Shown here in pieces: positions 60 to 20,960 of a stretch of 64,000 nucleotides of DNA. The position numbers and the translations under genes were made by a program. The notes beneath the pieces were generated by a model that worked only from the letters and a program-made list of their open reading frames with translations, searched no databases and was not told where the DNA came from. The stretch comes from Candidatus Latescibacterota bacterium (GTDB lineage: Bacteria > Latescibacterota > 4484-107), in NCBI GenBank assembly GCA_043804415.1, contig JAZDJA010000184.1:7630-71629 (forward strand). Direction: 5' to 3'. Position 1 is the first letter of the stretch, and each line of letters opens with the position of its first letter.

Positions 60-1406
60 ATGAAACAGTCGCTGATGAACCATCCCGAGATGGACTACGC
101 AACGGAGTGGAAGCGCACCAATCCGGATCTGAAGGTCTATATGCCGGAGGGCGAGAACGGTTTTGATGCAACCAATCAGCACTTTCTGGTTTCGCCAACC
201 CCCCGGGGCAGTTGGTTTGCCACGTGGACGCGCTCGGCCGAGGAGGGTTTCGGGAACCAGCATATCGTGTGTTCCCGCTCGGAGGACCGGGGGAGGACGT
301 GGAGCCCCCCCATCGTGATAGACGGTCCGGAGGGGGCCGATGATCCGAAGCACTGCGCGTCACTCCAGAACGAGGGTACCTGGGCAGCCCCCAAAGTCGA
401 AAGAGACTCGATCGGCATCGCGTCGTGGTGCTTCTCCATCTTTGCGCACGCGACGGGAAGGATCTACGTATTCTACCACAAAAACATTGAAAAAACTGAT
501 TTCCGCTACGACATGAGCGGCGCAATGTGCATGAAATACTCCGAAGACGACGGCAGGAGCTTTTGCGAGAACATCTATCAGTATCCCATCGAGAGCAAGG
601 CCATCGACAATCCGGATCCCACGGTCAACAAGAACTGGATCGTCTGGACCCAGCCCCATGCGATGCCGGATGGCACGGTCATTGCCCCGTATTCGAGGTG
701 GAGCAGCCCGAAGAGCCCGTGTGCCGGCGGCTCGGAAGCATTCTTCTTCCACTTCGAGAACGTCCTCACCGAGACCGATCCGGAGAAATTCCGCATCGTA
801 ACCTACCCGGAGGGACCCCACGGATTGCGTTCGCCTGCGTGCACCAAGCCCGCCTCCTCGTTATGCGAAGAGCCGGTCATCGTGGCCCTGTCCGATGGCC
901 GATTGTTCTGCATCATGCGAACCGATCACGGAATCATTTACTCGAGCATTTCATCGGATAGGGGGAAGAGTTGGACCCCGCCGATCCCCCTCATGGACAG
1001 GCCCGGGGGAGATTTCCTGCTCAACCCCGTGGTCCCCTGTCCAATCTACAAGCTGCGAGATGGCCGGTATCTGCTCCTTTACTACAACAACGACGGGTCA
1101 GCCCACGGGGGAAAGTGCCCTGCCGGGTACACCTACTTCCGCCAGAACCGCTACCCCGCCTACCTGTGCGTGGCTCGCGAGGCGCCGGGGGACAAGAACT
1201 ACCCACTCCGGTTCGGCAAGCCGAAGGTGATCGCAGATACCGAGGGCATCGAGATCGGACCGAGCGGGAGGAGGGAAGCGGCCACCTACCCCAGCCTGCT
1301 TGAGGACGGAGCGGATCGCATCCTCTTCTATCCGGACCGGAAACACTGGCTGCTCGGGAAGTATGTCACCGACGAGTGGCTTGCCGATATCGACCCGGGG
1401 AGATAA
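60..1406 (+). CDS. BNR/Asp-box repeat sialidase-like six-bladed propeller protein (exo-alpha-sialidase-like family), no signal peptide
   Basis: 448-aa ORF with Asp-box motifs (SRSEDRGRTWS, SSISSDRGKSWT) spaced as in sialidase-fold propellers; ATG at 60 preceded by a purine-rich RBS. Confidence 0.7.
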   Translation: MKQSLMNHPEMDYATEWKRTNPDLKVYMPEGENGFDATNQHFLVSPTPRGSWFATWTRSAEEGFGNQHIVCSRSEDRGRTWSPPIVIDGPEGADDPKHCASLQNEGTWAAPKVERDSIGIASWCFSIFAHATGRIYVFYHKNIEKTDFRYDMSGAMCMKYSEDDGRSFCENIYQYPIESKAIDNPDPTVNKNWIVWTQPHAMPDGTVIAPYSRWSSPKSPCAGGSEAFFFHFENVLTETDPEKFRIVTYPEGPHGLRSPACTKPASSLCEEPVIVALSDGRLFCIMRTDHGIIYSSISSDRGKSWTPPIPLMDRPGGDFLLNPVVPCPIYKLRDGRYLLLYYNNDGSAHGGKCPAGYTYFRQNRYPAYLCVAREAPGDKNYPLRFGKPKVIADTEGIEIGPSGRREAATYPSLLEDGADRILFYPDRKHWLLGKYVTDEWLADIDPGR

Positions 1407-1428
1407 CGGACAGCAAAGGAGTTTCGCC

Positions 1429-2646
1429 ATGAACAAGCAAAGAGCAGCGGGGGGCCCTTTGAGCGAAGATGCGCTGCGGGGTCCTATGAAAATCGCCAAG
1501 ATACGAACCTGGCTGGTGGAAGGGGTCCTATACAACTGGACGCTGATTAAGATCCATACCGACGACGGGCTCACGGGAATCGGAGAAGCCACCAACTGGC
1601 CCGGCAGCCCCCTGGTCGAAGCCGCCTGCCGACACGTGGCCGATTTGCTGGTCGGCGAAGACGCCACGCGTATCGACTATCTTTGGACCAAGCTCTACCA
1701 GGACATGAACTGGCTCGGGCAGGCGGGCCCGCTACTAAGTGCCATCAGCGCTGTCGATATCGCACTGTGGGACATCGCAGGCAAGCGCGCGGGGCTGCCG
1801 GTTTACCAACTCCTCGGTGGCGCCTATCGCACAGATATCGAACTCTATGCAAACTGCTGGTTCACAGAGAGCGATGGATCCCCGGAATCATACGCTTCGG
1901 ATGCGCGACGGATGCAGGCACTTGGGTATAGTGCCTGCAAATTCGATCCCTTCGCGCACACCAACTACACCTACGGCGCACACCTCTCCACCAATCTGTC
2001 GCTCTCAGAAGAGCAGAAGCGGCTGGCGATGGAGCGGCTTTGCGCGGTCTCCGAGGCGCTGGGCCCGGATTTTCCCATCGCGGTCGAAACCCACGCCATG
2101 CTCAACGGACCCGTGGCCATGGAGATGGCACACCGTATCGCAGCAGCAGGCATCAACTGCATGTGGTATGAGGAGCCGGCCGGTCCCGAGTTCCCCGAAC
2201 AGATCGCCGAGATCAAGCGCCGCATTCCGCTGCCCGTCTGCGTCGGTGAGCGACTGCACAGCCGTTTCATGTGCCGGCGGATACTGGACCTGCAGGCTAC
2301 CGATATCTTGATGCCGGACGTTACGCGCTGCGGCGGCATCAGCGAATTGCGCAAGATCGCCTATTTGGCCGAATGCTACAACGTGCCCATCGCTCCACAC
2401 AACCCCAATGGTCCCATCTCGACCATCGCGTCCGCGCACGTGGCGGCATCGATTCCGAATTTCTTCCGCCAGGAGTTTGTGGTCAACGACGTGCCGTGGC
2501 GGGATACGGTGCTGGACAAGCCCTTGCCGGTCCAAGAGGGCCACTTCCTGCTCGGCGACGAACCGGGGCTCGGCTTCGACCTGGTGGAGCGGGAACTGGA
2601 AAGGCATCCGGGGGTACGCACGCCGCGCCCGGGATTTTATATCTGA
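1429..2646 (+). CDS. enolase-superfamily (mandelate racemase/muconate lactonizing enzyme family) sugar-acid dehydratase, galactonate/fuconate dehydratase-like
   Basis: KIHTDDGLTGIGEAT N-terminal capping-domain signature and TIM-barrel metal-ligand region; ATG 1429 has a strong AAAGGAG RBS (an alternative start is 1486). Confidence 0.8.
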   Translation: MNKQRAAGGPLSEDALRGPMKIAKIRTWLVEGVLYNWTLIKIHTDDGLTGIGEATNWPGSPLVEAACRHVADLLVGEDATRIDYLWTKLYQDMNWLGQAGPLLSAISAVDIALWDIAGKRAGLPVYQLLGGAYRTDIELYANCWFTESDGSPESYASDARRMQALGYSACKFDPFAHTNYTYGAHLSTNLSLSEEQKRLAMERLCAVSEALGPDFPIAVETHAMLNGPVAMEMAHRIAAAGINCMWYEEPAGPEFPEQIAEIKRRIPLPVCVGERLHSRFMCRRILDLQATDILMPDVTRCGGISELRKIAYLAECYNVPIAPHNPNGPISTIASAHVAASIPNFFRQEFVVNDVPWRDTVLDKPLPVQEGHFLLGDEPGLGFDLVERELERHPGVRTPRPGFYI

Positions 2647-2757
2647 TACCCTCTCAGGTGAAAAGGAGCCCCTTCGATACAAACTCCACCGATGAGACCG
2701 ATACGATCTCATCGGTCTGCATGAAATCGTCTCAAGACCAGCCAAGAGGAGTATGCT

Positions 2758-3781
2758 GTGAAACTTGTCCTGTATGGCGCTTTCCGGCGGCCCTATCTTC
2801 CGGTGCTGCGCGAAGCGCTTGCGACACAATGGGAGATCACCACCGGCGAGAACGACCAGAGCTGGCTGCTGGGCGAGATCGCCGAAGCCGACGCGCTGTT
2901 GGCACAGAAGCTGCCGTTGGAGGCGCGCCCCACGGCTCGGAGATTGAAAGCACTGCTGGTCCCTGGCGCGGGAGTAATCCATTCCGACCCGGCGGAGTTG
3001 CCCGCGGGCTGCGTGCTGGCCAACGTATTCGAACACGAAATCCCGATCGCGGAATACGTGATGACTGCGATCCTCCTGCACGTCACGCAGGCGGTGCCCT
3101 ATATGAGATCGTTCGGCGAGGGCTCTTGGGAAGGCAGCGGACGATTGGGCGGGCAGTTACACGATGAGATCCATGGCAAGACGCTCGGACTTATCGGGTA
3201 CGGCCATATCGGGCAGGCGGTTGCTGCCCGCGCTCGGGCCTTCGGCATGAAGGTGTGCGCGATCTGCGCCCATCCGAGTACGGCAGCACCGGAACCGGCG
3301 GCGTGGGCAGATTTCCTCGGCGGCCCAGCGGATCTGGACCGCGCTCTGGAATCGTCCGACTTCCTGGTGATCGCCTGCCCGCTCACGACCGCGACCGAAG
3401 GCATGATCGGAGAACGGGAGCTTGCCCGCATGCCCACCCACGCCATGATCATCAACGTGGCACGTGCCGAGATCATACAGGAAGCACCCCTGTACGAGGC
3501 CCTGCCGGACGCGCGGCATCGCCGCGTCCGCGCTTGATGCCTGGTACCGCTATCCCGCGCACCTGGGCGAACGGATGCACGGTTCCGCGCTGCCGTTTCA
3601 CGAGTTGGACAACGTTATGGCCACCCCGCATTTTTCCGGATGGACGCACGCCCTGCTCGAACGGCGCGTGCGCAAGATCGCCGCTAACCTGGACCGCCTG
3701 GCCCGGGGCGAGGAACTGGAGCGCGTGGTGCTGCGCGGGACGTGGCGGCCCGAGTCGCAGCCGTCTCCGGCGGGAAGATGA
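2758..3781 (+). pseudogene. D-isomer-specific 2-hydroxyacid dehydrogenase, interrupted by a +1 frameshift near 3500-3515
   Basis: GTG start with an AGGAG RBS; NAD-binding GKTLGLIGYGHIGQAVA motif in frame 1; the C-terminal IAASALDAW...MATPHFSGWT catalytic region continues in frame 2 (ORF 3464..3781). Confidence 0.65.
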
Positions 3782-3789
3782 TTTTCAAA

Positions 3790-3877
3790 GGAATTAAGGC
3801 TTCAGCCTTTCAACGGGAGTGGCATTCTTAGCGAAACACTACCTCCTTCGGAATTAAGGCTTTAGCCTTTCATTGGG
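3790..3877. repeat. two direct copies of a 28-bp motif GGAATTAAGGCTTyAGCCTTTCAwyGGG, each containing the palindrome AAGGCT-N2-AGCCTT
   Basis: copies at 3790-3817 and 3850-3877, about 60 bp apart, in the gap between the dehydrogenase pseudogene and the next BNR gene. Confidence 0.7.
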
Positions 3878-3925
3878 GGTGGGGGCGGGTAAACAACGAA
3901 CCGATTCAGCGACTAGGAGGAAACC

Positions 3926-5161
3926 ATGAGCAAAGACAGTGTCAAACTCACGAATTGCATTCAGACCCTTCCGACGGAGTATGTGATAGAGAGCAATGAC
4001 ACGGATGCCTCCGGGCTCTACCCGTTTTCGCGGCTGATCTCCTCGGTCTCGCCCCACGTGGTCAGACAGGAGAATCCCAAGGGTCCGCGCTACCAGGAAG
4101 GACTGAGCTACACCTTCCTGATCAATTCGGCGAAGTTTCCGGGACTCACCAAACTGGATGATGGGAGGCTGGCACTTACCCTCAGTGGAGACCTCAAATA
4201 TGAATTTGTCAACGAGGGAGACCGGCGCGAAGCACTACTCCTTTTCTCCGACGACGATGGGATCACGTGGACCCAACCCAGGCGGGTCCCGATCCACCGA
4301 AGCATCCCGATCAATCTCGGGGGCGAAAAACTGATGCTCCGAGGCAATGCCGGGCCCGCCCATGCGCACTGCATCAGTAACGATGGGGGCGCGACCTGGG
4401 GAAATGTGGAACCCATTCCCCCTGCTCCCGATGGCCGGGAGGGCTACACCGACCTGGTCCTTCATCCCCTGGTCGAAGGGGACACCGTCACCGCCATCTT
4501 TTACTCCTCAGAGCCCGGCTCCGACGACCAGTATGGCAAGCTCATCACAGACGGCAAACGACCTCCTCTTGCGCACAGTTTCATCAGGCGCTACCACCTC
4601 TCCACGAAAACGTGGGACGACCCGGTATATTTCCCCCTCGAGTGGCGCACGATCGAAGGCATGCTCACCCGCGCCAAAGACGGCAGCTTGGTGGCCGCGT
4701 TTCGCACGGACATGCCGGCCGACGTGACAGCGCCCTCGGATCACTGGGACGGGATCATGACCACCCGATCGACCGACGATGGAAAGACATGGTCCGAGCC
4801 CGCCCGTCACTTCAAGTACGGGTATATGCACACGCACCTGCTCTCCCTCCCGGACGGCCGCATCGTGCTGACCTACGCGGCCCGGATCGGCGAGTTGGAT
4901 GGGAGGAACTACCACGGCATCGAGGCGGTTGTAAGCTCGGATAACGGCGTTACGTGGGACTGGGAACACCGGTTCATTCTCTTCCGCTGGACCGATCAAT
5001 GCACCCACAGTCCGCAGTCCGTGCAGCTTTCAGATGGGAGAATCCTCACCGTGTTTCTGCACGGCAAGAACTTCACCTGGACCGATCGACCCGAGCGTAC
5101 CGTCAAAACCAATCTCTTGTACCTTGGAAACGTCACGGTGGTGATCTGGAATATCACCTGA
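3926..5161 (+). CDS. BNR/Asp-box sialidase-like propeller protein, a distant paralog of the tandem pair at 10965/12355
   Basis: Asp-boxes FSDDDGITWTQP, SNDGGATWG, STDDGKTWSEP, SSDNGVTWDW; strong RBS AGGAGG before ATG 3926; the C-terminal half is roughly half-identical to 10965..12152. Confidence 0.7.
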   Translation: MSKDSVKLTNCIQTLPTEYVIESNDTDASGLYPFSRLISSVSPHVVRQENPKGPRYQEGLSYTFLINSAKFPGLTKLDDGRLALTLSGDLKYEFVNEGDRREALLLFSDDDGITWTQPRRVPIHRSIPINLGGEKLMLRGNAGPAHAHCISNDGGATWGNVEPIPPAPDGREGYTDLVLHPLVEGDTVTAIFYSSEPGSDDQYGKLITDGKRPPLAHSFIRRYHLSTKTWDDPVYFPLEWRTIEGMLTRAKDGSLVAAFRTDMPADVTAPSDHWDGIMTTRSTDDGKTWSEPARHFKYGYMHTHLLSLPDGRIVLTYAARIGELDGRNYHGIEAVVSSDNGVTWDWEHRFILFRWTDQCTHSPQSVQLSDGRILTVFLHGKNFTWTDRPERTVKTNLLYLGNVTVVIWNIT

Positions 5162-5313: not shown

Positions 5314-6468
5314 ATGAAGATCACGAGGATTACGGCACATCTGATGGGAATCCCCGGACCGGGCGGGCACTCCCCCGCGCGCAACTGGACCTTTGTCAAA
5401 GTGGAAACCGACGAAGGCATCGTGGGGGTCGGCGAAGCAACTACCGAATGGCATGAGCAGGCAGTTGTCGCGATGATCGAGCACCATTTTGCACCCCTGT
5501 TGATCGGTCAGGATCCGACCGGAGTGACGCGTGCATGGCAGCAAATGCAGCGCTTTTTCTGGTGGCGAAACGGTGTGGTGGCCGCAAGTGCCGCCAGTGG
5601 TATCGAGCAGGCTCTGTGGGATATTACCGGCAAAGCATACGGACAGCCGGTATACAAGTTACTCGGGGGCGCCGTAAGAGATCGCGTCAGGGTGTATGCC
5701 CGAAGCGATCTTGGATTGAGCAACTACGTGGAGGAGATCAAGACTGCCAGGGAGGAAGGGATTACGGGGTTCAAGTTTGCGCCCGGCAAGCTCGTGGAGC
5801 CATTCGATGACGAAAAGCAAGTCGATGTTGCGCTTGACTTGGCTCGGGACCTTCGAAAGGCTGGTGGACCCGAATGCGACCTCATGATCGATTGTCACGG
5901 CAACTTCTCTTTGCAGGCGGCACACCGACTGATCGACCGGATCCGGGAACACAAGATGCTGTTTATCGAAGAGCCCACGAATGCGGATACACCGGGCCCA
6001 CTCGTGGCGCTTCGACGCGCCTTTCCAGACCAGCGGATCGCGGCTGGCGAACGGCTGATGACTCGCTGGGGATTTCGCGAGTGGTTGGAGACCGGAGCGG
6101 TGGATGTGATCCAGGCCGACATTTCGCACTGTGGGGGAATTGGCGAATTACTGCGGATTGCCTCTTACGCCGAGATCCACAACGTCCGGGTGGCTCCGCA
6201 CAACCCTTATGGACCTGTGGCTTTGGCGGCCAGCGCCCACGCGTGCGCGGCCATGCCCAATTTTCTGATTTTGGAGTACTGCCGTCACCGGCCCTGGATT
6301 CACGAGGTGGTCAAATTCGGCCCGCAAGTTGCGGAGGGATGCGTCCAGCTCGATGATCGCCCGGGCTTGGGAGTGGAACTGGATTGGGACTATGTGGCCA
6401 GGCACCCCTATCAGCCGCTGGACTATTGGATTTACAGCGATCGAGACAACGCCCTTCCCTGCATCTGA
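5314..6468 (+). CDS. enolase-superfamily sugar-acid dehydratase (mandelate racemase family)
   Basis: VETDEGIVGVGEAT capping-domain motif and barrel domain; RBS GGGAGCAGAG before ATG 5314; paralog of 1429..2646. Confidence 0.8.
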   Translation: MKITRITAHLMGIPGPGGHSPARNWTFVKVETDEGIVGVGEATTEWHEQAVVAMIEHHFAPLLIGQDPTGVTRAWQQMQRFFWWRNGVVAASAASGIEQALWDITGKAYGQPVYKLLGGAVRDRVRVYARSDLGLSNYVEEIKTAREEGITGFKFAPGKLVEPFDDEKQVDVALDLARDLRKAGGPECDLMIDCHGNFSLQAAHRLIDRIREHKMLFIEEPTNADTPGPLVALRRAFPDQRIAAGERLMTRWGFREWLETGAVDVIQADISHCGGIGELLRIASYAEIHNVRVAPHNPYGPVALAASAHACAAMPNFLILEYCRHRPWIHEVVKFGPQVAEGCVQLDDRPGLGVELDWDYVARHPYQPLDYWIYSDRDNALPCI

Positions 6469-6522: not shown

Positions 6523-7413
6523 ATGCCAGCTGTCAAACCGTACGACCTCAATAAGATCAGGTATTTCAAGTGGGTGGATCATCCGGAATCGATTTCCGTG
6601 GGTCCGGAAGGCGAGGCCTATACCACAGGAACCGGATTCCAGGTGTACCGGCTGGACGTGACGAACCACACCAGCGAGCAATACGCCTCGACCGCCCCGC
6701 GACGCATGCTCGGGCAGGCAGTGGATGCGGATGGAAACCTGTATTGTGCGGACATAGGGCATTATTCTTCTCCCGATATCCTCAGCAAGGTCATCCGCCT
6801 GACCCCGGATGGGAAGGAAAGCGTGTATGCCACTGCGCCAGGCGGCAAAGGTTTTCTATGTGCGAATTATCCTGCGTTCGATCGCAAGGGCAACATGTAT
6901 CTGTCGGACAGCGGGGACTGGTCAGAAGAGATAAACGGGCACATTTACAGAATCCCGCCCGGAGGGGGTGAGGCGCAGCTCTGGTTTCCCGAGCCGGTAT
7001 ACACGCCCAACGCGATCGCTTTGGATGCGGCAGAGGAGTTCCTTTATTTTGTGGACTCATTCGGGAACGGTGTCGCTCGTATTGCCATCAAGAAGGACGG
7101 CTCCGCAGGGGCGCTTGAATATGTAGTATATATGCCCCACCATATTCCGGACGGCATCGCTCTGGATGAGGAGGGAAACATTTGGATCTCCTGTCATCGT
7201 CCCGACGTCATCTACATCCTTGATATCAAGACCAGGCGCCTTGAAGTGTTTGCCGAAGACTGGCGGGGTGAAGCGCTTCGCGCGCCCACGGATGTGGCAT
7301 TTGCGGGGCCCGACCGGGATGTCCTGCTTGTGGCATCCCTTGGCCGCCACGATGTGCATCGCCTTGACCATGTCGGCGTGCGCGGTCTGCGTCTCAACAA
7401 TCCCAAACTATAG
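6523..7413 (+). CDS. SMP-30/gluconolactonase/LRE-family lactonase
   Basis: 296-aa beta-propeller lactonase-like sequence; RBS AAAGGAGG upstream; sits between a dehydratase and a dehydrogenase in a lactone-forming oxidative sugar pathway context. Confidence 0.7.
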   Translation: MPAVKPYDLNKIRYFKWVDHPESISVGPEGEAYTTGTGFQVYRLDVTNHTSEQYASTAPRRMLGQAVDADGNLYCADIGHYSSPDILSKVIRLTPDGKESVYATAPGGKGFLCANYPAFDRKGNMYLSDSGDWSEEINGHIYRIPPGGGEAQLWFPEPVYTPNAIALDAAEEFLYFVDSFGNGVARIAIKKDGSAGALEYVVYMPHHIPDGIALDEEGNIWISCHRPDVIYILDIKTRRLEVFAEDWRGEALRAPTDVAFAGPDRDVLLVASLGRHDVHRLDHVGVRGLRLNNPKL

Positions 7414-7425
7414 GAGATCCCTCTC

Positions 7426-8466
7426 ATGGATGCCCCTAAGCTGCGCTTCGCCATGTTCGGGACGGGGGTTTTCGGTCAGATCTTCGCCCCCTACATCAAC
7501 GAAGTGGCCGAACTCGTCTCCATCTGCGACCCCAGTCCCGAGGCAAGGTCAGCCTTCCGGGAAAAGACAGGTCTCGCGCTTCCGGAATTCGACAACGCGG
7601 AACGGTTACTGGCGGAAGTGGACATCGATGCCGTGGCACTGACCGGTCCGAACCACACCCATAAGCCGCTCGCACTCGCGGCCGCCCGTGCAGGCAAACA
7701 CGTTTACTGCGAGAAGACCATGGCCCCGACCGTTCCGAACTGCTGGGAGATGGTCCGGGCCTGCGAGGCCGCCGGAGTACGTCTGATGGTGGGCCACAAA
7801 CGCCGGATCAGACCTCCCTGGGCGCGGATGATCCAACTCTGCGACCAGCTCGGACCTGTGTATGCCATAAGTTCGTGCAAATATCACGACTCCAGCGGCT
7901 ACAATCCACAGGGCTGGTGGTGGCGCGATGCCGAGTGCGGGGGAACACTGCCGTTGGTGGGCGTACATACGATTGACTGGATGCGAGCCATGTGCGGCGA
8001 TGTGGAGAGCGTCAGCGCCCTGGCCGCTCCGCAGATTAACTCGCATTTCGATTACCCGGACACCATGCACGTTTCGCTTCGGTTCCGATCAGGTGCGGTA
8101 GGTGCGCTGTCCGTTTCGGCCTCGTATCCTATCCTCCAGTACCGCGAGGCCTGCAGTTCGGATGTCATCACCCGCGAGGGAGGGATGCGCATCCAGACCT
8201 ACCTCGATCATATTGACCTTTCCTATCGGCGCCGGGACGACTCCGAGACCCATTACGAAAGATTTGATGATCTGGGTCACGCTCACGCTTTCCGGAAAGA
8301 GCTGGGAGACTTCGTCCGATGGGTGACAGAAGGAGCAGAGCCCTGTCTGACATGGCGGGAAGGACTGCGGTGCGTCGAAGTCATGGAGGCTGCTCATCAT
8401 TATTCAGCAAGACAAAACGGGCGCTGGGTTGATCTTCCACTATACCCGGAGCTGGAGGCGGCATGA
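7426..8466 (+). CDS. Gfo/Idh/MocA-family NAD(P)-dependent sugar dehydrogenase
   Basis: N-terminal Rossmann motif FAMFGTGVFGQ..., EKTMAPT motif; stop overlaps the next start (ATGA at 8463-8466). Confidence 0.8.
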   Translation: MDAPKLRFAMFGTGVFGQIFAPYINEVAELVSICDPSPEARSAFREKTGLALPEFDNAERLLAEVDIDAVALTGPNHTHKPLALAAARAGKHVYCEKTMAPTVPNCWEMVRACEAAGVRLMVGHKRRIRPPWARMIQLCDQLGPVYAISSCKYHDSSGYNPQGWWWRDAECGGTLPLVGVHTIDWMRAMCGDVESVSALAAPQINSHFDYPDTMHVSLRFRSGAVGALSVSASYPILQYREACSSDVITREGGMRIQTYLDHIDLSYRRRDDSETHYERFDDLGHAHAFRKELGDFVRWVTEGAEPCLTWREGLRCVEVMEAAHHYSARQNGRWVDLPLYPELEAA

Positions 8467-10607
8467 ACGCAAAGAGGCATGTAGGAGTTGTCGTGGGAAG
8501 TGCGGCCCCGCAAGTCGAGCAGTACGCCGCCAGTCAGCTGTGCGGGTATCTGGAGAAACTTTTTGACATCCAGACGGAGCCGAGCACGTCCATCCCTCCG
8601 GATTCCGATTATCTCATTCTGGTGGGTAATCCTTCGACGAATCCCGCAGTGGAGGAAGCAACCGGGCGTAACCCCTTCCCAAAGATCGGTGATCAGGGCC
8701 TGGTGCTGCGGCACACGCTCCATCAAGAGTGCCCGGCCCTGATTGTCGGGGGCGGGAGCGCCCGCGCAACAATGTGGGCTGTTTACGAGTTGGTGGAACG
8801 GTGGGGGGTACGGTATCTGCAGCATCGCGACGTTCTCCCCGAGAATCGGGAACCGTTCGAGTTGCCTGAGCTTGATGTGGTGATCGAACCGACCCTCCCG
8901 GTTCGCTATGGGTGGGGGATCATAGACTTCGCCGGCGGATACGAATCTTGGGGTATGCGCGACTACCGCCCCGTGATCGACCAACTGGCAAAGCTCAAGA
9001 TCAACCGGCTTTTGATCGTTGTCTTTGCGTGGCAGCCGTTCCTGGATTACGAGGTCAGTGGCATCAAGCGTGAATCCGCGTGGCTTTGGTACGACTACCA
9101 CTACCCGATCACGGCGGACATGGTGGGGAGAGAATTGTTCGGGGACGCCCGGGAGTTCTGGAATCCCGACTTGCCGATGGATGCCGGCTACCAGGAATTT
9201 ACTGCGGCGGGCGAACAGCTGGTGCATAACCTGATAGACTACGCCCACCAAAGGGGCCTCGAATGCGTACTCCAGGCCAACTTACTTGAATTCCCCCCTG
9301 AGTTCAAACCGCTGCTGAAAGGCGCGCAGAAGGTTCAGCAACTGGGGGAACTGACCATTGTGCCGGGTGCGGATACAGACCTTGACGACCCCGGCCTCGT
9401 CGAACTGGGTTCCGCTGTTTTGCGGGCTACGGTGAACACCTATCCGGAAGCGGACTTCGTGGCGCTGTGGATGCAGGAGCATCGCCAGTGGACGGAAAAG
9501 ACCTATGAGGGTGCCTGGAGTGCACTGGACGCCAAATACGACCTCAGCCAGATCCGAGCCCTGGACGATGTGCTTGCCAGGGCTGGCAATCGTACCGCTC
9601 ATACCGGGGGGGCCGAACGGGCTGTGCGCGAAGTCAAAGGGGATATCACCGCGCTTTACTTCTACGATCGGCTCCTGACGGATCTGGACGTACTGAACGG
9701 CACGCGCCGTCCGGACATGAAATTCATCTACGGCGCCCTGGCCGAAGAGATGTATCCCCTGCTCCCCCGGTTGATACCGCAAGGAGGGGAGACGTTGAAC
9801 TTTATTGACTATACCCCCTCTCGCGTCCTCAATCGGCGCGAAGTCCTCAAGGATCTTCCCTGTCGGGAGATCCCGTGCAGTCTTATCTACACGCTGGACG
9901 ACGACAACATCGGCGTCGTACCGCAGCTGACGACCCCATCTCTGCACGAACTGACCCGTGACCTCATCAAATATGGGTGCGCGGGGTTTGAAATGCGGCA
10001 GCGGTATCTGGGCGATCATGATCCTGCCGTAGCCTATCTGGCCAAGGTGGCTTGGGACGCCAGCGCAACACCGGACGAGGTATACAGAGACCAGATTCGG
10101 GCGGTTTGCGGAGAAGGGTGCGTGGAGGAGATGCTGACGGCTTTCCACGAGGTGGAGGCAGTAACCGTTAACCTGGAATGGAAAAACCTGAGTTTCTCGT
10201 TCCCTGTGCCGGGGATGATGATGAAGTTCTGGAAGCCGGGGCCCATGTCCGCCGACCTGATCGAAGACCGAGCCGGCTATCGGCGAGCCCTGGAGGCAGC
10301 CCGACAAGCGCAGGAGAAGGCAACGACGTCCGGTCGTCCTTACGTGGACTACTGGGTAGGACGGCTGCAGTTTGCGGCAGGCTATCTGGACGCAGTCGAA
10401 GCCGTTACCCTTGCCGCCACAGCCGAAGCGGCGAACAACCCGGGCCAGACGCTGGAGTACACACAAGCTGCACTCGGGATGGCTCGTCAATCCATAGAAG
10501 CCTATGCCCGCGTCGCACAGGATCAAACTGACCGCGGCACGATCGCGGTGCTGAACGAATACGTCTTTCGTCCTTTGAAGGCCAAAGTGGCTGAGTTGAG
10601 GAAGTAG
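8463..10607 (+). CDS. putative glycoside hydrolase (GH20b-like N-terminal domain plus TIM-barrel; DUF4838-like), cytoplasmic
   Basis: 714-aa ORF translationally coupled to the upstream dehydrogenase; domain architecture recognised only by pattern, family uncertain. Confidence 0.45.
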   Translation: MNAKRHVGVVVGSAAPQVEQYAASQLCGYLEKLFDIQTEPSTSIPPDSDYLILVGNPSTNPAVEEATGRNPFPKIGDQGLVLRHTLHQECPALIVGGGSARATMWAVYELVERWGVRYLQHRDVLPENREPFELPELDVVIEPTLPVRYGWGIIDFAGGYESWGMRDYRPVIDQLAKLKINRLLIVVFAWQPFLDYEVSGIKRESAWLWYDYHYPITADMVGRELFGDAREFWNPDLPMDAGYQEFTAAGEQLVHNLIDYAHQRGLECVLQANLLEFPPEFKPLLKGAQKVQQLGELTIVPGADTDLDDPGLVELGSAVLRATVNTYPEADFVALWMQEHRQWTEKTYEGAWSALDAKYDLSQIRALDDVLARAGNRTAHTGGAERAVREVKGDITALYFYDRLLTDLDVLNGTRRPDMKFIYGALAEEMYPLLPRLIPQGGETLNFIDYTPSRVLNRREVLKDLPCREIPCSLIYTLDDDNIGVVPQLTTPSLHELTRDLIKYGCAGFEMRQRYLGDHDPAVAYLAKVAWDASATPDEVYRDQIRAVCGEGCVEEMLTAFHEVEAVTVNLEWKNLSFSFPVPGMMMKFWKPGPMSADLIEDRAGYRRALEAARQAQEKATTSGRPYVDYWVGRLQFAAGYLDAVEAVTLAATAEAANNPGQTLEYTQAALGMARQSIEAYARVAQDQTDRGTIAVLNEYVFRPLKAKVAELRK

Positions 10608-10751
10608 GACGGGCTCCGTGATGCACACCAACGCCCGCGTCCTCACGACCTTCCGTGATACCAGGCACTATTCGTGGCACGATGGCGCCTTCGGCCCAAG
10701 GAGCCGGAAGACGATCGGGGGGAGGTCTCGGTTGTGATTTGGAGGCCGTAG
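10608..10751 (+). pseudogene. 3'-terminal remnant (about 45 codons) of a third BNR sialidase-like paralog, fused directly to the stop of the upstream hydrolase gene
   Basis: nucleotide similarity to the last ~140 bp of genes 10965..12152 and 12355..13560 (...cctcacgaccttcc...gacgatcggg...tag), followed by the same conserved 3' tail and 5' leader. Confidence 0.6.
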
Positions 10752-10964
10752 TGGAGATTGGCGGCGGCTGAGAGGGCAAAGGGTCGCCTCACGGGAGGTC
10801 GCCGGACCGATGAGAACTGGGACGGCAAGCCCGTCTCAGTGGGACCAAATGAGCATGTGATGAGCATGTCAGGAAATGAGTGACGCCGCACGTAAATCTT
10901 TAGGCCACGGAGCGGCAGACCCGGTGAAAACCAGCGCAGCAATGCTGCCAAAGGAGAGAGGACT

Positions 10965-12152
10965 ATGACAACCGAGACCCCATCCGTACCCAACATGCAC
11001 CAGATTCCCCGCGAGCGGCTGCAACGGGACGAGCTGACCAACGAGAGTGGGAACTACCCGCGCGACTGGGTCACGTCGCCGTTGCAGGCCACGGTTATCA
11101 GGCAGAACACCCCCGCAGGGGCCAGTTACAGAGAAGCGATCGGGTACACGTTCCTGCTGTATTCGATGAAGTTCCCATCCGTCGTGCGAATGGACGATGG
11201 CCGGCTGCTGATGAATGCCAGTTACGAGGACAAGTCCGACGACAGACCGTGGGTGCTCCTCTTCTCAGACGATGAGGGCAGGTCGTGGTGTCAGCCCGCC
11301 CCGAGCCAGCTTGGGCGGTCCACTCTCATCAACCTGGGTGGCAATCGGCTCGTGTCGATAGCGTCTGCTGTGGCGCTGCGGTTCAGCGAGGACGGCGGGA
11401 AGTCCTGGAGTGAGCCGGAGACGATCCCGCCCATGTCGGACGGACGGCATTGGTGCAGCGATGTACCTTACTCTCATCTGGTGGAGGGTCAGAAGGTCAC
11501 CTTTGTGGGGTCCGTGGACCTGCATCCGGGTTACCAGCGTTGGGAGGAAAGCGACACCATCTGGACTCGCGGGGTTATGCGCGCTTACCATCTCGACACG
11601 CACGAATGGGATGAGCCTTACCTGTTCCCGATGGATTGGGGGCTCTGCGAGGGTTCCATTACGCGGGCGACGAATGGGGATCTGGTCGCAGTGTTCCGCA
11701 CTCAGCTTATGGATGGGATACGGATCACTACCGACCACTGGATGGGGCTGGCGACCACACGGTCAGTCGACGACGGCAAGACCTGGGAGAAGCCGGTGCA
11801 GGCATTCCTCTATGGGCATCACCACATGAACCTGAGGACGCTGCCGGACGGCCGACTTCTCATGACCTATGCCTCCCGGATCGGGGAGCTTGAGGGCATG
11901 CCCTACCACGGCATCGAGGCGGTGCTGAGCCACGACGACGGCAAGACGTGGGACTGGAATCGCCGTTACATACTCTTCAGAGAGCTGAGCGACCAACTTA
12001 CGCACAGCCCCGGTTCTGTAATGCTCTCCGACGGCAGCATCCTCACGACCTTCCTGCATACCAAGGGCTTCACTTGGGACGACGGAACCGTAGGCCCAAA
12101 GAGCCAGAAGACGATCGGGAATGTCTCGGCCGTGATCTGGAAGCCCTGGTAG
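10965..12152 (+). CDS. BNR/Asp-box sialidase-like propeller protein (tandem copy A)
   Basis: Asp-boxes FSDDEGRSW, SEDGGKSWSEP, SVDDGKTWEKP, SHDDGKTWDW; RBS GGAGAGAGG; about 88% aa identity to copy B. Confidence 0.75.
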   Translation: MTTETPSVPNMHQIPRERLQRDELTNESGNYPRDWVTSPLQATVIRQNTPAGASYREAIGYTFLLYSMKFPSVVRMDDGRLLMNASYEDKSDDRPWVLLFSDDEGRSWCQPAPSQLGRSTLINLGGNRLVSIASAVALRFSEDGGKSWSEPETIPPMSDGRHWCSDVPYSHLVEGQKVTFVGSVDLHPGYQRWEESDTIWTRGVMRAYHLDTHEWDEPYLFPMDWGLCEGSITRATNGDLVAVFRTQLMDGIRITTDHWMGLATTRSVDDGKTWEKPVQAFLYGHHHMNLRTLPDGRLLMTYASRIGELEGMPYHGIEAVLSHDDGKTWDWNRRYILFRELSDQLTHSPGSVMLSDGSILTTFLHTKGFTWDDGTVGPKSQKTIGNVSAVIWKPW

Positions 12153-12354
12153 AGAGTGGCAGCGGCTGAGAGGGCAAGGGATCGCCCCACGGGAGGCCAT
12201 GTCCGGACCGATGCGGATAGGGACGGCAAACCAACAGCAGTGGGAACAAATGAGTAGGACATGGAATGAGTGATGCCGCGCGCAAATCTTTAGACCACGG
12301 AGCGGCAGAGCCGGTGAGAACCGGAGCAGTCATGCTGCCAAAAGAGAGGAAACT

Positions 12355-13729: not shown

Positions 13730-14914
13730 ATGAAACATTCAGAACACCCCATGGTGATCAGTACTTTCAACGATGCCCTCGATTGGTGCTGGTCCTATGG
13801 CAACTGGGGCAGCTCCGGAGTGGAGCGGCTGATGGAACGCTACCAGCAGGCCAATATCCAGCGGGTCTATTGGCGCGCGAACCAGGGGAGCCTTTGCTGG
13901 TGGCCGAGCAAGGTCGGCACTCCCTACCACGGCGTCCACTTGCGCCGTCCGCCGGATTTCGTCGGACGCGGTCAGGATTGGTATGCCGAAAGGGATGCAG
14001 GATTCGACACTCGTGCTTTCGACCAACTGGCTGTTGCTTGCAAGAAGGCCCCCGAATATGGCATCGATCTTTGGGTTTACTGGACCCCCTTCCTGGATGA
14101 TGACACCGGCGACGGATGGGCCGGCGATTGGGAATCGGCGCACCCGGAATGGTGGCGTGTGTTTCGCAACAAAGTGGTGTCAAATACCAACATGAGTTTT
14201 GCTTTCCCCGAGGTGATGGCCCACAAGCTGGCCCTGATGAAGGAACTCCTTCAGTACGATCTCAAAGGGATCCTCCTGGATTGCGTCCGGCAGCATTGTT
14301 TCCTCCTTGAGGAGGACGGCGCGGTTGTAGACGAGGATCTGGCCTACCTCGGCGGCTATGAGGGACCGATCGTAAACGCGTTCCAGGAGAAGACCGGCAA
14401 AGATCCCTTCGGGCTGCCCAATGCGGACGAAGAGTGGATTCAGTTCCGAGCGGATTACAATACGGAGTTCGTGCGCAGACTGCGTACCATCCTTCGCGAA
14501 GCGAAGCCGGAGGTCAAACTGGGCGCCATGGTGCGGGCTAAAGGCGCCAAATCGGGAAAGCGCATCCACCAGGGGAACGCCCTTCGGGAGATGCTGATCG
14601 ACCTTCCGACATGGTCCAAGGAGGGCTTGATCGACACCTTGCTGCAGGATTCTTACGCTCCCCCGGCCACAAGCGAGCAGCTGGTGGAACAACTCAATGT
14701 CTCGCGGTCTCAGGTGGACGCGCAGAAAATCGCGGTCGGTGTGGAAATGGCGCTGTTTGGAGAATGGGACCTCCACACCTTGGCTGCGGCCATGAAGGGA
14801 CCTGCTGCAGCCGGTGCCCGGGAATTTGCCTTCTATCAGGATACTTGTTTTGAGGATCTGAGCCTTCGACAGAACATCAATGCATGGAGAGAACTCGGCA
14901 AACTCGTAAAGTGA
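13730..14914 (+). CDS. putative glycoside-hydrolase-like TIM-barrel protein (GHL10-like), paralog of 15081..16391
   Basis: 394-aa ORF with an excellent RBS AAAAGGAGG; shares RVYWRA / FAFPEV / ILLD motifs with the downstream paralog. Confidence 0.5.
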   Translation: MKHSEHPMVISTFNDALDWCWSYGNWGSSGVERLMERYQQANIQRVYWRANQGSLCWWPSKVGTPYHGVHLRRPPDFVGRGQDWYAERDAGFDTRAFDQLAVACKKAPEYGIDLWVYWTPFLDDDTGDGWAGDWESAHPEWWRVFRNKVVSNTNMSFAFPEVMAHKLALMKELLQYDLKGILLDCVRQHCFLLEEDGAVVDEDLAYLGGYEGPIVNAFQEKTGKDPFGLPNADEEWIQFRADYNTEFVRRLRTILREAKPEVKLGAMVRAKGAKSGKRIHQGNALREMLIDLPTWSKEGLIDTLLQDSYAPPATSEQLVEQLNVSRSQVDAQKIAVGVEMALFGEWDLHTLAAAMKGPAAAGAREFAFYQDTCFEDLSLRQNINAWRELGKLVK

Positions 14915-15009
14915 GGATCGCCGTTTTCGCCCCTCTTGGGAGCGCCCGTCATCCGGGCGTGCCGTCAGGCACGATTCAGTTTAGTGCGGCAGCATGCAGA
15001 GTCCTCATG

Positions 15010-15035
15010 CCTGATCCCTGATGCCTGATCCCTGC
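15010..15035. repeat. tandem CCTGATN heptamers (3.5 copies) about 50 bp upstream of gene 15081
   Basis: cctgatc cctgatg cctgatc cctgc; the same heptamer array is found at 29065-29099. Confidence 0.7.
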
Positions 15036-15080
15036 ATTCCAGCTCCTTAGTACTCACAAACACAGAAGAAGGAAGAGACG

Positions 15081-16391
15081 ATGACAGACGGATCGAAACG
15101 CGCAATGATTCTCTCCGCCCCGCTGACGCATTCGGACTGGATGATCCACGCCGATGCCCCGGACTGGGGACCGGAGGGCGTTCGCACGATGCTCGATCAC
15201 TGCCGGGCATGTGGCTGGTCGCGAATCTACTGGCGGGTCTTCGACGCCGGCATGGCCCTGTATGCCAGCCGCCTCCTGGAACCGATGAAGTATGCCACCA
15301 GTCCGCAGCCAAACTGCCTGACCACGGGCGAACTGGCCTCCCAGGCCCCGCCGGATCTGGTGGCCCGGGCGATGAAACTCGACTATCACGGATTTGACAC
15401 GCTGGCTGCGGCAGTGCGGATCGGTCACGAACTGGGGCTGGAGATTCACGCCTGGTTGTCCATCAATGAAGACGATCACGGGTGGGGCTGGCCCAGCCGC
15501 TTCACGCAAGCGCATCCGGAGTGTCGCTGGGTGCGCCGGGATGGGCGCGCCTATCATTCGCAACTGAGCTTTGGGTTTCCCGAGGTGCGGGAATACAAAC
15601 TGGATCTGATCCGGGAGATGCTGGCCTACGAAGTGGATGGCATCTTCCTGGACTGGATTCGCACGGGCGATATCCGCGACAACCCCCGGAACGATCCACA
15701 GGGCGTGGCCAACTATGGATATGAAGCGCCGCTGGTAGAAAGCTTCCGCTCGCGTTACGGACTGGACCCCCACGAGGTGGAGAACGGGGATGAGCGCTGG
15801 GTTCGGTGCCGCGCTGAGCCGATCACCGATTTCATGCGGACGGTTCGAAATGCGCTCGATCAACACCCTCGCCGGATAGTATTGGCAGGGATGGTGCATC
15901 ACTGCTGGGCATATCGGGGACTTCAGGAAGAGGGCTTCATCGATGGTGCGCTGCGGGGCGTCCTGTGTGATATTCGCACGTGGGCGCGCGAGGGACTGGT
16001 GGACGAGCTGGTGGTGGGCGGCTATTATATGAAAGACGGCACTCCGGAATCCGGATACCGCTGGCTGGAGGAGGAGACCGAGGGCCGGGTGGCGCTGTGG
16101 CTGTATGGCTGGGTTCCGGAGAGCACCGAGGACTTCGAACGGGATCTGACTCTGGCGCGCAGGCTGGGGGCCCGGCAGTTATTGTTCTGGGAGGCGGACT
16201 ACATTGACATGCGGCCCGAACCGCAGCGCGAGCAGATCATGACGGATGCGGGAATCAACCTGCTCCGGATGAAGAAGCTAGAGGAGTTACTGGGAGGAGC
16301 GCTTCCAAGGCTCTGCGTGAAAGAACCAGTTTGCCGAACAGTTTCAAGCCCGGACAAAAAGGGTAATACTATGGAACCCATTGAACACTGA
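15081..16391 (+). CDS. putative glycoside-hydrolase-like TIM-barrel protein (GHL10-like), paralog of 13730..14914
   Basis: 436-aa ORF; conserved RIYWRV, FGFPEV and FLDW motifs shared with 13730..14914. Confidence 0.5.
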   Translation: MTDGSKRAMILSAPLTHSDWMIHADAPDWGPEGVRTMLDHCRACGWSRIYWRVFDAGMALYASRLLEPMKYATSPQPNCLTTGELASQAPPDLVARAMKLDYHGFDTLAAAVRIGHELGLEIHAWLSINEDDHGWGWPSRFTQAHPECRWVRRDGRAYHSQLSFGFPEVREYKLDLIREMLAYEVDGIFLDWIRTGDIRDNPRNDPQGVANYGYEAPLVESFRSRYGLDPHEVENGDERWVRCRAEPITDFMRTVRNALDQHPRRIVLAGMVHHCWAYRGLQEEGFIDGALRGVLCDIRTWAREGLVDELVVGGYYMKDGTPESGYRWLEEETEGRVALWLYGWVPESTEDFERDLTLARRLGARQLLFWEADYIDMRPEPQREQIMTDAGINLLRMKKLEELLGGALPRLCVKEPVCRTVSSPDKKGNTMEPIEH

Positions 16392-16483
16392 AAGACACGG
16401 AAACACACCGAAAACCCATTAGCTTCCTTCAGGAAAGGATGCTCTCATTCAGTGTTCCCATGATCCACACAGGAGAGCCGTTC

Positions 16484-17641: not shown

Positions 17642-17909
17642 AAGTTGGCAAGTGGTCAGTGGGTGAGTAGTGAGTGGTGTATGCAGCAACGAGCTTGGAA
17701 GAATCCCTAACGCACCGGAAAGCGTACCATGAAGAAACTGCTCGAGAGTATTGCACACTTTGGAGCTGCGTTCTGCGCAGATGCGATGAATTTCTCGGCT
17801 TATCGAAACCGTTTCCTGTCACCGATCAGTGACACGGGCGTGCCATCTGCAGGGTCACCGCAAAAAAACAACCGGCCAATGGACACCCCCATACCTGAAG
17901 GAGTGTAAG

Positions 17910-19700: not shown

Positions 19701-19775
19701 GTCTTGATGAATGTTCCGGCCAAAACACATCGTGCAGTCTGCGCAGCAAATAGGTCCCCTACTGAAGGAGAAGAA

Positions 19776-20960
19776 GTGCCTGCAAACGTGAAGGTAAAGG
19801 TCGTGTCACATGGGGAATCCGTGACGGATCCGTTGGATTGCCGGATGCCCATCGTCGGGCCCGGCATCAACCAGCCGGATCCTTTTCCCGGGTATGGCGG
19901 ATTTGTGGGCTTTTCATCGCCGGCCCGGCTGAGGAACGGCACCTGGTTGGTTGGCTTTTTGGCCGGCTATTCCCACCTACACGGTCCCTCTCCGATGGAC
20001 TACTATACAGAGGAAGAGTTGGCGCATGTCCGGGAATCCGGATATGCGTTGGAGAATTACTACGCTCCCACAGGGGCCAGAGCGATGTTCGTTCGCTCGA
20101 ACGATGAGGGGAAAACCTGGTCGAAACCGGCGACGCTAATCGATACGCCCGCAAATGACGCCCATCCCTTCTTTCTGGAATTACCCACGGGCACGATCCT
20201 CTGCTCCTTCTTCACCGCGTGGGGGTGCCATCACAGAAATGATCCCGCCCTGGCCTATCACGTCCGTTTCATCCGCTCGTTTGATGGGGGATTCACGTGG
20301 GAGCAGGAACCCCGGCTCCTTCCGTCTCCTTTTCTGGCCGAGGAGACCGAGGCCCCCATGTTGCACCTCGAGGAGGGTGCGGTGCTGATTGCCGTTGATG
20401 GAGATCCCCGCGAAGGCGGGCCGCAACAGGCAGCGATATTCCGCACCATGGATCAGGGGGACACATGGGAACTCCTCTCCATCGTAAAGGCCGCCCATGA
20501 ACTGTCGGAGCCGGCCATCGCCCAATTGCCCGACGGCCGACTGGTTATGATCGCGCGTCCCAAAGGAGCGATCTCCTGGTCCGAGGATTGCGGACGGACG
20601 TGGACGCAGCCCCAGAGCTTTGGAATACCGATGTACGCCCCCAGCCTGCAGGTGTTGCAGGACGGAAACCTGCTCTGCCTGCACGGATCATACAGCCCTG
20701 GGCATGGCGCTCTGCGCGCCATTTTGAGCCCGGACGGCGGAAAGACATGGCGGGCACCGGCGCCGGACCATGGGTTCCTGGTGGATCGCACTTACGGGTA
20801 TGGCAAGGGAATGCTCCTTCCAGATGGCTCCCTGTTTATCTCCTATATGAGCACAGGCGGCCATGCTCCCCAGGATGCCCGAACCAACTGCCTCTGGTCT
20901 GTACGCCTGCGTGTCCGCGCCGACTGCGCCGGCATCGATCTTTTGCCCGCAGCCCGGTAA
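19776..20960 (+). CDS. BNR/Asp-box sialidase-like propeller protein
   Basis: Asp-boxes SNDEGKTWSKP, SFDGGFTWEQEP, TMDQGDTWELL, SEDCGRTWTQP, SPDGGKTWRAP; GTG 19776 follows an AAGGAG RBS (an in-frame ATG at 19704 is the alternative). Confidence 0.6.
   Translation: MPANVKVKVVSHGESVTDPLDCRMPIVGPGINQPDPFPGYGGFVGFSSPARLRNGTWLVGFLAGYSHLHGPSPMDYYTEEELAHVRESGYALENYYAPTGARAMFVRSNDEGKTWSKPATLIDTPANDAHPFFLELPTGTILCSFFTAWGCHHRNDPALAYHVRFIRSFDGGFTWEQEPRLLPSPFLAEETEAPMLHLEEGAVLIAVDGDPREGGPQQAAIFRTMDQGDTWELLSIVKAAHELSEPAIAQLPDGRLVMIARPKGAISWSEDCGRTWTQPQSFGIPMYAPSLQVLQDGNLLCLHGSYSPGHGALRAILSPDGGKTWRAPAPDHGFLVDRTYGYGKGMLLPDGSLFISYMSTGGHAPQDARTNCLWSVRLRVRADCAGIDLLPAAR

Follow-up and report, generated by a model that had tools for sequence, protein, structure and literature searches.

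What does a bacterium do with seven sialidase-like genes that lie close together on one strand, among enzymes of sugar-acid metabolism, and whose products carry no recognizable export signal? This question is raised by the left part of a 64-kb window (the whole stretch of DNA analyzed here, to which all positions refer) from a 75,089-bp contig, JAZDJA010000184.1, of a metagenome-assembled genome (MAG) of Candidatus Latescibacterota, about 11 kb of the contig lying outside the window. The genes occupy the left two-thirds of a glycan-catabolism island of about 31 kb (60-31171) in which nearly all genes are on the + strand. On balance, we lean toward the view that their products, here termed B1 to B7, would be intracellular exo-acting glycosidases with five different specificities, none of them for sialic acid, that feed an oxidative sugar pathway. 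The proteins of the window are identical to the NCBI records MFH1007763-MFH1007786, in which the Prokaryotic Genome Annotation Pipeline (PGAP) labels all seven 'sialidase family protein'. An earlier note on this DNA had placed seven + strand genes at 60, 3926, 10965, 12355, 16484, 17910 and 19776; open reading frames (ORFs) are present at each of these starts and agree with the PGAP starts, as judged by exact-sequence comparison with MFH1007763, 767, 776 and 777 and with the 100% matches P0001 and P0121. The seven genes and a remnant of a further copy are:

60..1406, + strand: B1, predicted sialidase-fold protein of the BNR_2 type, 448 amino acids, own subfamily; BNR_2 59.3 bits; PGAP MFH1007763
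3926..5161, + strand: B2, BNR_2 protein of the B3/B4 family, 411 amino acids; 51.7 bits; 4 Asp-boxes
10612..10734, + strand: remnant, a pseudogene fragment corresponding to the 3' end of a further B3/B4-type copy
10965..12152, + strand: B3, BNR_2 protein, 395 amino acids
12355..13560, + strand: B4, recent tandem duplicate of B3, 401 amino acids; BNR_2 49.5 bits
16484..17641, + strand: B5, BNR_2 protein, 385 amino acids, own subfamily; 63.5 bits; 5 strict Asp-boxes; PGAP MFH1007776
17910..19700, + strand: B6, 596 amino acids, with a propeller over approximately residues 1-400 and a C-terminal beta and helical extension; BNR_2 16.6 bits
19776..20960, + strand: B7, BNR_2 protein, 394 amino acids, from a subfamily that is very widespread and strongly conserved; 82.8 bits

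In the six-frame translation of the window all 26 strict Asp-boxes (S-x-D-x-G-x-x-W) fall inside these seven genes, as against 0.03 on average and never more than 1 upon shuffling of residues. From B1 to B7 the strict motif occurs 2, 4, 4, 4, 5, 3 and 4 times, and a relaxed version 3, 4, 4, 4, 5, 4 and 5 times; the earlier note's figure of four to five Asp-boxes in each gene hence holds for most of them, but not for B1 (2 strict, 3 relaxed) or B6 (3 strict, 4 relaxed). The profile search that it had proposed recovered the BNR_2 domain (PF13088) above its gathering score of 31.4 bits in six of the seven genes (49.5-82.8 bits), with B6 falling below it; several homologues of B6 carry precomputed BNR_2 matches. 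The NCBIfam models F510_1955 and Ycf48 were matched at sub-threshold levels only, and were dismissed as uninformative.

An AlphaFold2 model of B3, built from a 53-sequence alignment (pLDDT 93, pTM 0.92), retrieved upon structural comparison the Dyadobacter fermentans protein Dfer_1899 (PDB 5HX0) as the top match with a score of 30.9, followed by about 20 GH33 sialidases scoring 24-28, including human Neu2, which is cytosolic according to its PDB title, and Salmonella typhimurium NanH, and by a GH93 exo-arabinanase at 24.2. The remaining six-bladed propellers scored 20.7 or less, propeller lectins being among the weaker matches, and Foldseek searches agree. The B6 model (pLDDT 92.6), which has extra C-terminal beta and helical domains, retrieved GH33 structures in Foldseek (2bzd, E 6e-14; 1eus, TM 0.63 normalized by target length), the pseudaminidase 2w38, 5hx0 and GH93. 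As this model has the sialidase fold, the weak BNR_2 score of B6 reflects divergence. Together, the BNR_2 profile for six genes and the structure model for B6 support the sialidase-type fold claimed previously, and place all seven in the sialidase-fold superfamily as predicted six-bladed propellers nearest to GH33 and GH93. The kinship with any solved structure is distant: 17-19% identity to Dfer_1899, a BNR_2 protein from structural genomics on which a literature search retrieved no paper; 10-17% to GH33 enzymes in structural alignments of the modeled proteins; and 10-16% to the GH93 exo-alpha-L-1,5-arabinanases of Fusarium graminearum (Arb93A, 2W5N/2W5O) and Penicillium chrysogenum (3A71/3A72), the PDB examples of this family being fungal. 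Likewise, phmmer and hmmsearch matches to GH33 PDB chains are weak and local (E 1e-7 to 1e-14).

The sequence relationships among these proteins suggest that they represent not a single expanded family but five old, distinct BNR_2 subfamilies, namely B1, B2/B3/B4 with the remnant, B5, B6 and B7, because the individual proteins are far closer to homologues from other phyla than to their neighbors in the island. B3 and B4 share 85.5% identity and B2 shares 44.5% with either; no other pair yields an alignment of more than 150 residues above 29% identity. The expanded paralog family that the earlier note described is thus borne out for the genes at 3926, 10965 and 12355 and the remnant, and not for the other four, and its range of identities needs correction at the top (85.5% rather than 88%). 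Relatives of full length number about 70 for the B2/B3/B4 type; their identities range from 36 to 90%, and they come from Latescibacterota, Pirellulaceae and metagenome contigs of unclassified origin. The B7 type has 892 matches, the best 120 of which are 56-64% identical; they span at least six phyla and include Armatimonadota, Abditibacteriaceae, Omnitrophota, Verrucomicrobiota, Acidobacteriota and Acidimicrobiia. B7-type proteins (P0122-P0240) are often labeled 'photosystem II stability/assembly factor-like' by JGI, and the family has no characterized member. At E<=1e-30, 107 cluster representatives were obtained for the B1 type, domains of which are elsewhere fused to SGNH esterases, Laminin_G_3 domains and a combination of GH28 and tannase. 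B6 belongs to a small family with 56 matches, and for B5 a single pattern scan of metagenome contigs gave one weak match and no close relatives.

The only recent growth of the gene family is the tandem array formed by the remnant, B3 and B4, which arose by unequal crossing-over. The remnant, which the earlier note had placed near 10608, directly follows the stop codon of the preceding gene for a 714-residue protein, and by tblastn matches the last 39-41 residues of B3 and B4 with 51% identity (E 6e-8 to 1e-7). The spacer of about 200 nucleotides upstream of B3 (10755..10962, + strand) is repeated upstream of B4 (12153-12350) with 79% identity over 211 columns in blastn, implying that the tandem repeat unit consists of gene plus spacer. 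These spacers, in which Rfam detects no RNA element, could carry a shared promoter or leader; their identity is about at the level of synonymous divergence. With a synonymous divergence (dS) of 0.34 and a ratio of nonsynonymous to synonymous divergence (dN/dS) of 0.20, B3 and B4 are both kept by purifying selection.

We then compared the seven proteins with GH33 at the level of catalytic residues, using as reference the S. typhimurium NanH sequence, which is 100% identical to 1DIL/2SIL. Its catalytic residues, which map to the known NanH motifs, are Arg37, Asp62, Glu231, Arg246, Arg309, Tyr342 and Glu361, the last being the partner of Arg37. As hhalign places blades out of register (a local alignment of the B3 family with NanH set blade 6 onto blade 1), equivalences were taken from a MAFFT alignment with the Asp-boxes of blades 1-4 in register, and are provisional. 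The six-bladed propeller and the presence of Asp-boxes in the same blades are shared with NanH, as is, in this alignment, an equivalent of Glu231 in all seven proteins; the Arg246 column holds Arg in B1, B2-B4, B5 and B7 (6/7) and Ser in B6, in which the invariant R266 and R306 lie nearby. In contrast, the arginine of the RIP motif, Arg37, is absent from all seven, its column holding Lys in B2-B4 and no Arg in B1, B5, B6 or B7; for B1, hhalign agrees with the alignment and places Leu at this position. Glu361 is also not conserved, and four proteins carry other residues at the Tyr342 position: B1 and B7 retain Tyr, B6 has a Tyr one column off, B2-B4 have His-Ser and B5 has Trp-Asn. His347 of B3 is another candidate for the equivalent of Tyr342, though the alignment puts Ser348 there and His347 one residue before. 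The Arg309 column is unreliably aligned in all seven. A loss of catalytic residues in every copy, which the earlier note had raised as a possible refutation of its view, therefore applies to the RIP arginine (0/7 retained) and not to the Glu/Arg pair (7/7 and 6/7).

Within the B3 family the Lys in the Arg37 column (K69 of B3) is present in 47 of 53 members and is never replaced by Arg, and R46, E57, E229, R245, D257, H287, R305, R339 and H347 are invariant in all 53. On the strength of the alignment this invariant polar set looks like an active site differing from that of GH33. Furthermore, the island (60-31171) codes for no N-acetylneuraminate lyase of the DHDPS type, ROK kinase or epimerase, nor for any other sialic-acid catabolism gene (nanA/K/E). 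In light of the missing first arginine of the GH33 triad in 7/7 and of the lack of these genes, B1-B7 are unlikely to be true sialidases.

For export signals we used throughout a hydrophobicity test, in which an uncharged stretch of 11 residues with a mean Kyte-Doolittle value of at least 1.6 was sought in the first 60 residues. It detected no signal-peptide-like stretch in B1-B7, with translation from the PGAP start or from the longest alternative one, and none in the other enzymes of the island; four unrelated proteins of the window with obvious signal peptides were flagged as positive controls. The absence of signal peptides asserted by the earlier note is thus upheld, also with respect to signals hidden behind corrected starts, which were looked for with the longest alternative starts and not found. 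The B2 ORF opens just 9 nucleotides before its ATG, too few to conceal a signal peptide, and GGAAGGGAA, which by eye resembles a Shine-Dalgarno sequence, lies 8 nucleotides before the B1 ATG at 60. Elsewhere, a signal-peptide-like N-terminus is present in 91 of 109 B7-type, 36 of 61 B3-type and 16 of 52 B6-type homologues; inspection by eye shows signal peptides of the classical and of the lipoprotein type in many of these proteins. One relative, P0014, which is 45% identical to B3 and in its N-terminal 40 or so residues nearer to B2 by eye, has a lipoprotein-type signal peptide. Hence, lacking a signal peptide characterizes this lineage rather than the families, the B7 and B3 types being mostly exported elsewhere. 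Tandem BNR_2 genes without signal peptides recur in two loci (L013 and L014) from the same ENA assembly set as close relatives of B3.

The contextual information from the neighboring genes is consistent with a catabolic role. All called genes from 60 to 23883 are on the + strand with short gaps. Up to 10607 they follow the order B1, enolase-superfamily dehydratase, 2-hydroxyacid dehydrogenase, B2, second dehydratase, SMP30 lactonase, GFO/MocA dehydrogenase and a 714-residue orphan; thereafter come the remnant, B3, B4, two GHL10 genes, B5, B6, B7, a URO-D/MtaA-like gene and a GH140 apiosidase-like gene. Beyond a − strand IS200-type transposase the island continues to about 31171 with a truncated URO-D-like gene, an MFS transporter, an HpcH-family aldolase and a 679-residue orphan, and housekeeping genes lie downstream of it. 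The features other than the BNR genes are:

1432..2646, + strand: enolase-superfamily sugar-acid dehydratase, galactonate dehydratase-like (MR_MLE_N, MR_MLE_C; NCBIfam galactonate/gluconate dehydratases below cut-offs)
2758..3781, + strand: D-2-hydroxyacid dehydrogenase (2-Hacid_dh_C positions 2-144 of 178 in ORF 2758-3537)
5314..6468, + strand: second enolase-superfamily dehydratase (MR_MLE_N/C; galactonate dehydratase model 294.5 bits against a cut-off of 311)
6523..7413, + strand: SMP30/gluconolactonase-type lactonase (Pfam SGL 69.7 bits)
7426..8466, + strand: GFO/IDH/MocA sugar dehydrogenase (Pfam GFO_IDH_MocA and C-terminal domains)
8463..10607, + strand: orphan of 714 amino acids (PGAP 'hypothetical protein')
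13730-14914 and 15081-16391, + strand: two GHL10 (PF02638) glycosyl-hydrolase-like genes (44.6 and 40.7 bits)
20990-22114, + strand: URO-D/MtaA-like gene (Pfam URO-D 63.8 bits)
22192-23883, + strand: GH140 apiosidase-like gene (Apiosidase 206 bits, with DUF5060; no signal-peptide-like stretch)
24838-25281, − strand: IS200-like (Y1_Tnp) transposase, interrupting the island
25592-26473, + strand: URO-D-like ORF (profile positions 145-342 of 346 only)
26752-28032, + strand: MFS transporter (Pfam MFS_1)
28116-28982, + strand: HpcH/HpaI-family 2-keto-3-deoxy-acid aldolase (NCBIfam best HpaI, GarL and KDR aldolases, below cut-off)
29132-31171, + strand: orphan of 679 amino acids (no Pfam match, no meaningful NCBIfam match)

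The BNR genes are accordingly embedded among cytoplasmic-type sugar-acid enzymes, as proposed before, with the dehydratases, the 2-hydroxyacid dehydrogenase, the SMP30 lactonase and the GFO/MocA protein lying between them. From their domain content, the GFO/MocA and SMP30 proteins, the two dehydratases, the HpcH/HpaI aldolase and the 2-hydroxyacid dehydrogenase are predicted to form a non-phosphorylative oxidative sugar route, all of whose enzymes score below the curated equivalog cut-offs. The 2-hydroxyacid dehydrogenase is apparently frameshifted near 3520: the ORF 2758-3537 ends inside the NAD-binding domain, and a C-terminus typical of these dehydrogenases, NVMATPHFSGWT, is found by eye in another frame (ORF 3464-3781), so that the gene is either a pseudogene or affected by an assembly error. 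The URO-D-like ORF at 25592-26473 appears to be 5'-truncated, perhaps by insertion of the transposase. The apiosidase-like gene hints that apiose-containing, rhamnogalacturonan-II-like glycans may be among the substrates. The 714-residue protein has no Pfam or PDB sequence match (NCBIfam gives 16.5 bits against a cut-off of 100), and it and the 679-residue protein are unrelated to each other, to a 761-residue neighbor in L014 and to any PDB chain; both are candidates for uncharacterized carbohydrate-active enzymes. In the whole window there are three URO-D/MtaA-like genes that resemble methylcobamide methyltransferases (20990-22114, 25592-26473 and 36515-37651, all on the + strand), along with an MTTB-family methyltransferase at 44569-46041 (+ strand). 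These genes hint at corrinoid-dependent demethylation, possibly of methylated sugars, tied to the glycan module.

Homologues of the BNR genes elsewhere occur in comparable surroundings. L013 combines three BNR_2 genes with two GHL10 genes, GH123, an FGE-sulfatase and, after the BNR_2/GHL10 genes, a URO-D-like gene at 14427-15488, and L014 combines two BNR_2 genes with GHL10, a TonB receptor, MFS and DUF4838; in both loci the BNR_2 genes lack signal peptides. The B3 orthologue of L018 is surrounded by enolase-superfamily genes, an RraA-like gene, a cupin, a NanM-like kelch protein and a GH29 fucosidase; L021 has a GH31/36-type glycosidase (Pfam Glyco_hydro_31_2nd, Melibiase, Glyco_hydro_36C), GH2 and GFO/MocA genes, and in L016 a sulfatase adjoins the BNR_2 relative. 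In the Lentisphaerae MAG contig MHBL01000265 (L001:5676-10906) three to four BNR_2 genes are adjacent over about 5 kb; signal peptides mark two of them and are missing from at least one, which makes this locus a counterpart of the present cluster with mixed localization. Between two and four clustered BNR_2 genes are seen in L001, L004, L012, L013, L014 and L018, seven being the maximum in this small sample; L001, L013 and L014 share the adjacency of BNR_2 genes with the present island, but have fewer copies and subfamilies per cluster. Taken together, the neighborhoods and fusions of the homologues point to glycan breakdown and not to one particular sugar.

In the reading that we prefer, each subfamily would remove a different terminal sugar from fragments of complex glycans, and all the BNR enzymes would act inside the cell, given that neither they nor any other enzyme of the island has an export signal. 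At least one of the released sugars might then be oxidized and cleaved by the successive action of the GFO/MocA dehydrogenase, the SMP30 lactonase, an enolase-superfamily aldonate dehydratase and the HpcH-family aldolase. Several points weigh against this proposal. Hydrolase activity is for all five subfamilies something that we infer, as are the exo-mode and the substrates, and the closest solved structure, 5HX0, has no assigned function and adds nothing on mechanism. The residue equivalences come from sequence alignment only, and global hhalign slips blades for the B3 family (probability 0.26) and B7. In B2-B4 the column of Tyr342 holds His-Ser and in B5 Trp/Asn, and a Tyr-to-His replacement is also found in the Trypanosoma cruzi PDB entry 3pjq, titled 'trans-sialidase-like inactive isoform'. 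The signal-peptide test is a crude hydrophobicity heuristic and not SignalP. Finally, the island has a single MFS transporter and no oligosaccharide ABC system or SusC/D (about 11 kb of the contig being outside the window); with the MFS protein as the only transporter of the island, the exo-glycosidase activity on imported oligosaccharides that the earlier note had suggested is an inference in both its parts. The island differs in this respect from a Bacteroidota polysaccharide utilization locus, as it lacks a SusC/SusD pair or any other dedicated oligosaccharide importer.

These points leave room for other explanations. The PGAP name, the GH33 sialidases, KDNases and pseudaminidase that are the best functionally annotated structural matches, the retained Glu231 and Arg246 equivalents, the NanM-like kelch gene next to the B3 orthologue of L018 and the GH33 enrichment in Latescibacterota MAGs (PMC8163846) would all suit true exo-alpha-sialidases of GH33, or hydrolases releasing KDN, Kdo or pseudaminic acid, that remove nonulosonic or ulosonic acids from glycans of hosts or algae, as surveys of Latescibacterota and sponge symbionts based on CAZy assume. 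We nevertheless consider this quite unlikely, in view of the universal absence of the RIP arginine, the loss of Glu361, the replaced Tyr342 position in B2-B5 and the lack of an N-acetylneuraminate lyase, kinase or epimerase in an island whose aldolase belongs to the HpcH family, and of the matches to GH33 chains, which reach E-values of only 1e-7 to 1e-9 and are carried by the Asp-box blades. The fold could instead serve lyases, or isomerases and cyclases, acting on sugar acids or small-molecule glycosides and feeding the dehydratase/aldolase pathway. The interleaving of the BNR genes with sugar-acid enzymes rather than transporters fits this idea, as does the invariant set of B2-B4, which is rich in His, Arg, Asp and Glu and has no Tyr at the nucleophile position. 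It is still an unlikely explanation: the folds of GH33 and GH93 hydrolases are clearly the closest, homologues are fused to or adjoin classical glycosidases, esterases and domains resembling carbohydrate-binding modules, and the export of most homologues in other phyla suits enzymes that act on polymers.

Alternatively, some or all of the propellers might descend from sialidase-fold enzymes but serve without catalysis, in binding carbohydrate or as scaffolds, in keeping with the incomplete GH33 catalytic set, with the Tyr-to-His replacement of 3pjq and with the propeller lectins among the weaker structural matches. Yet many polar residues of the buried type are strictly invariant across B3-family members that are 36-87% identical, the B7 family retains its 56-64% identity across phyla, the B3/B4 pair has the low dN/dS given above, and a cytoplasmic lectin would have no obvious role in a catabolic operon; we thus regard a non-catalytic role as very unlikely. 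A further possibility is export after all, whether from starts that were called wrongly, by a non-classical route or upon lysis, which would make the island an ordinary locus for extracellular or periplasmic polysaccharide degradation. It is suggested by the signal peptides of most B7- and B3-family homologues and by the B1 reading frame, which reaches the left window edge without a stop. This appears highly improbable, as the longest alternative starts of B5, B6 and B7 add no hydrophobic stretch, B2 has no upstream room, the putative Shine-Dalgarno sequence precedes the B1 start, PGAP called the same starts with the full contig at hand, and other proteins of the window clearly show signal peptides. 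Moreover, the families of the neighboring dehydratases, NAD-dependent dehydrogenases and aldolase are normally cytoplasmic.

Beyond the preferred reading of intracellular glycosidases, we tentatively advance a more specific proposal, to which we assign a distinctly lower likelihood: at least one of the five subfamilies may constitute a new glycoside hydrolase (or lyase) family with a substrate other than an ulosonic acid, which in Latescibacterota would have been relocated from the periplasm to the cytoplasm within a recurring signal-less module of BNR_2, GHL10 and MtaA-like URO-D genes that acts on imported fragments of algal or sponge glycans of a methylated or acidic kind. The best candidates for such a new family are the B2-B4 type, in which an invariant Lys/Glu/Arg/Asp/His-Ser set replaces the GH33 triad and Tyr, and the highly conserved and widespread B7 type.

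The earlier note held this type of locus to be not well described, which was overstated in view of the PGAP labels and of published precedents, from which it follows that the fold, the multi-copy presence in the phylum and the cytoplasmic site are not new in kind. Robbins et al. 2021 (PMC8163846) reported enrichment and lateral transfer of GH33 in sponge-associated MAGs of Latescibacterota (class UBA2968) and Poribacteria, the former, which are among the GH-rich lineages, resembling the present case in phylum and type of annotation; sialidase-like genes in multiple copies are regarded there as characteristic of lineages and as laterally acquired. Their study counts hidden Markov model matches per genome, and does not deal with clustering, absence of signal peptides or an incomplete catalytic set. 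Youssef et al. 2015 found one GH33 gene in one Latescibacteria single-cell genome. According to Medley et al. 2024 (PMC11525138), NanH of Clostridium perfringens is a GH33 enzyme that, like B1-B7, has no export signals, and its substrates are probably glycans taken up by the cell. A literature search on BNR_2 together with 'cytoplasmic' retrieved nothing, and one on GHL10 retrieved Cwp19 and DogH only. As far as we could find, the literature describes neither the gathering of five subfamilies in a single island without export signals, nor the loss of the RIP arginine throughout, nor the contrast with exported orthologues.

If the proteins are active, they would add several uncharacterized specificities to the sialidase fold, and surveys that count such genes as 'GH33 sialidases', be it in sponge symbionts or in Latescibacterota, may assign the wrong substrate. 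The island is thereby both a lead for enzyme discovery and a caution on 'GH33' counts from metagenomes. The B7 type in particular, with hundreds of members that are about 60% identical across phyla and have no assigned function, is an outstanding target for biochemistry. The signal-less copies here, set against exported orthologues elsewhere, offer a clean natural case of a glycan toolkit relocated to the cytoplasm, a relocation that would point to the uptake of larger fragments by these uncultured Latescibacterota.

Just beyond the island there is a DUF559/MTES_1575 restriction-endonuclease-like gene (31952-32752, + strand), and a tRNA gene at 59754-59825 (+ strand) is the sole Rfam match in the window.

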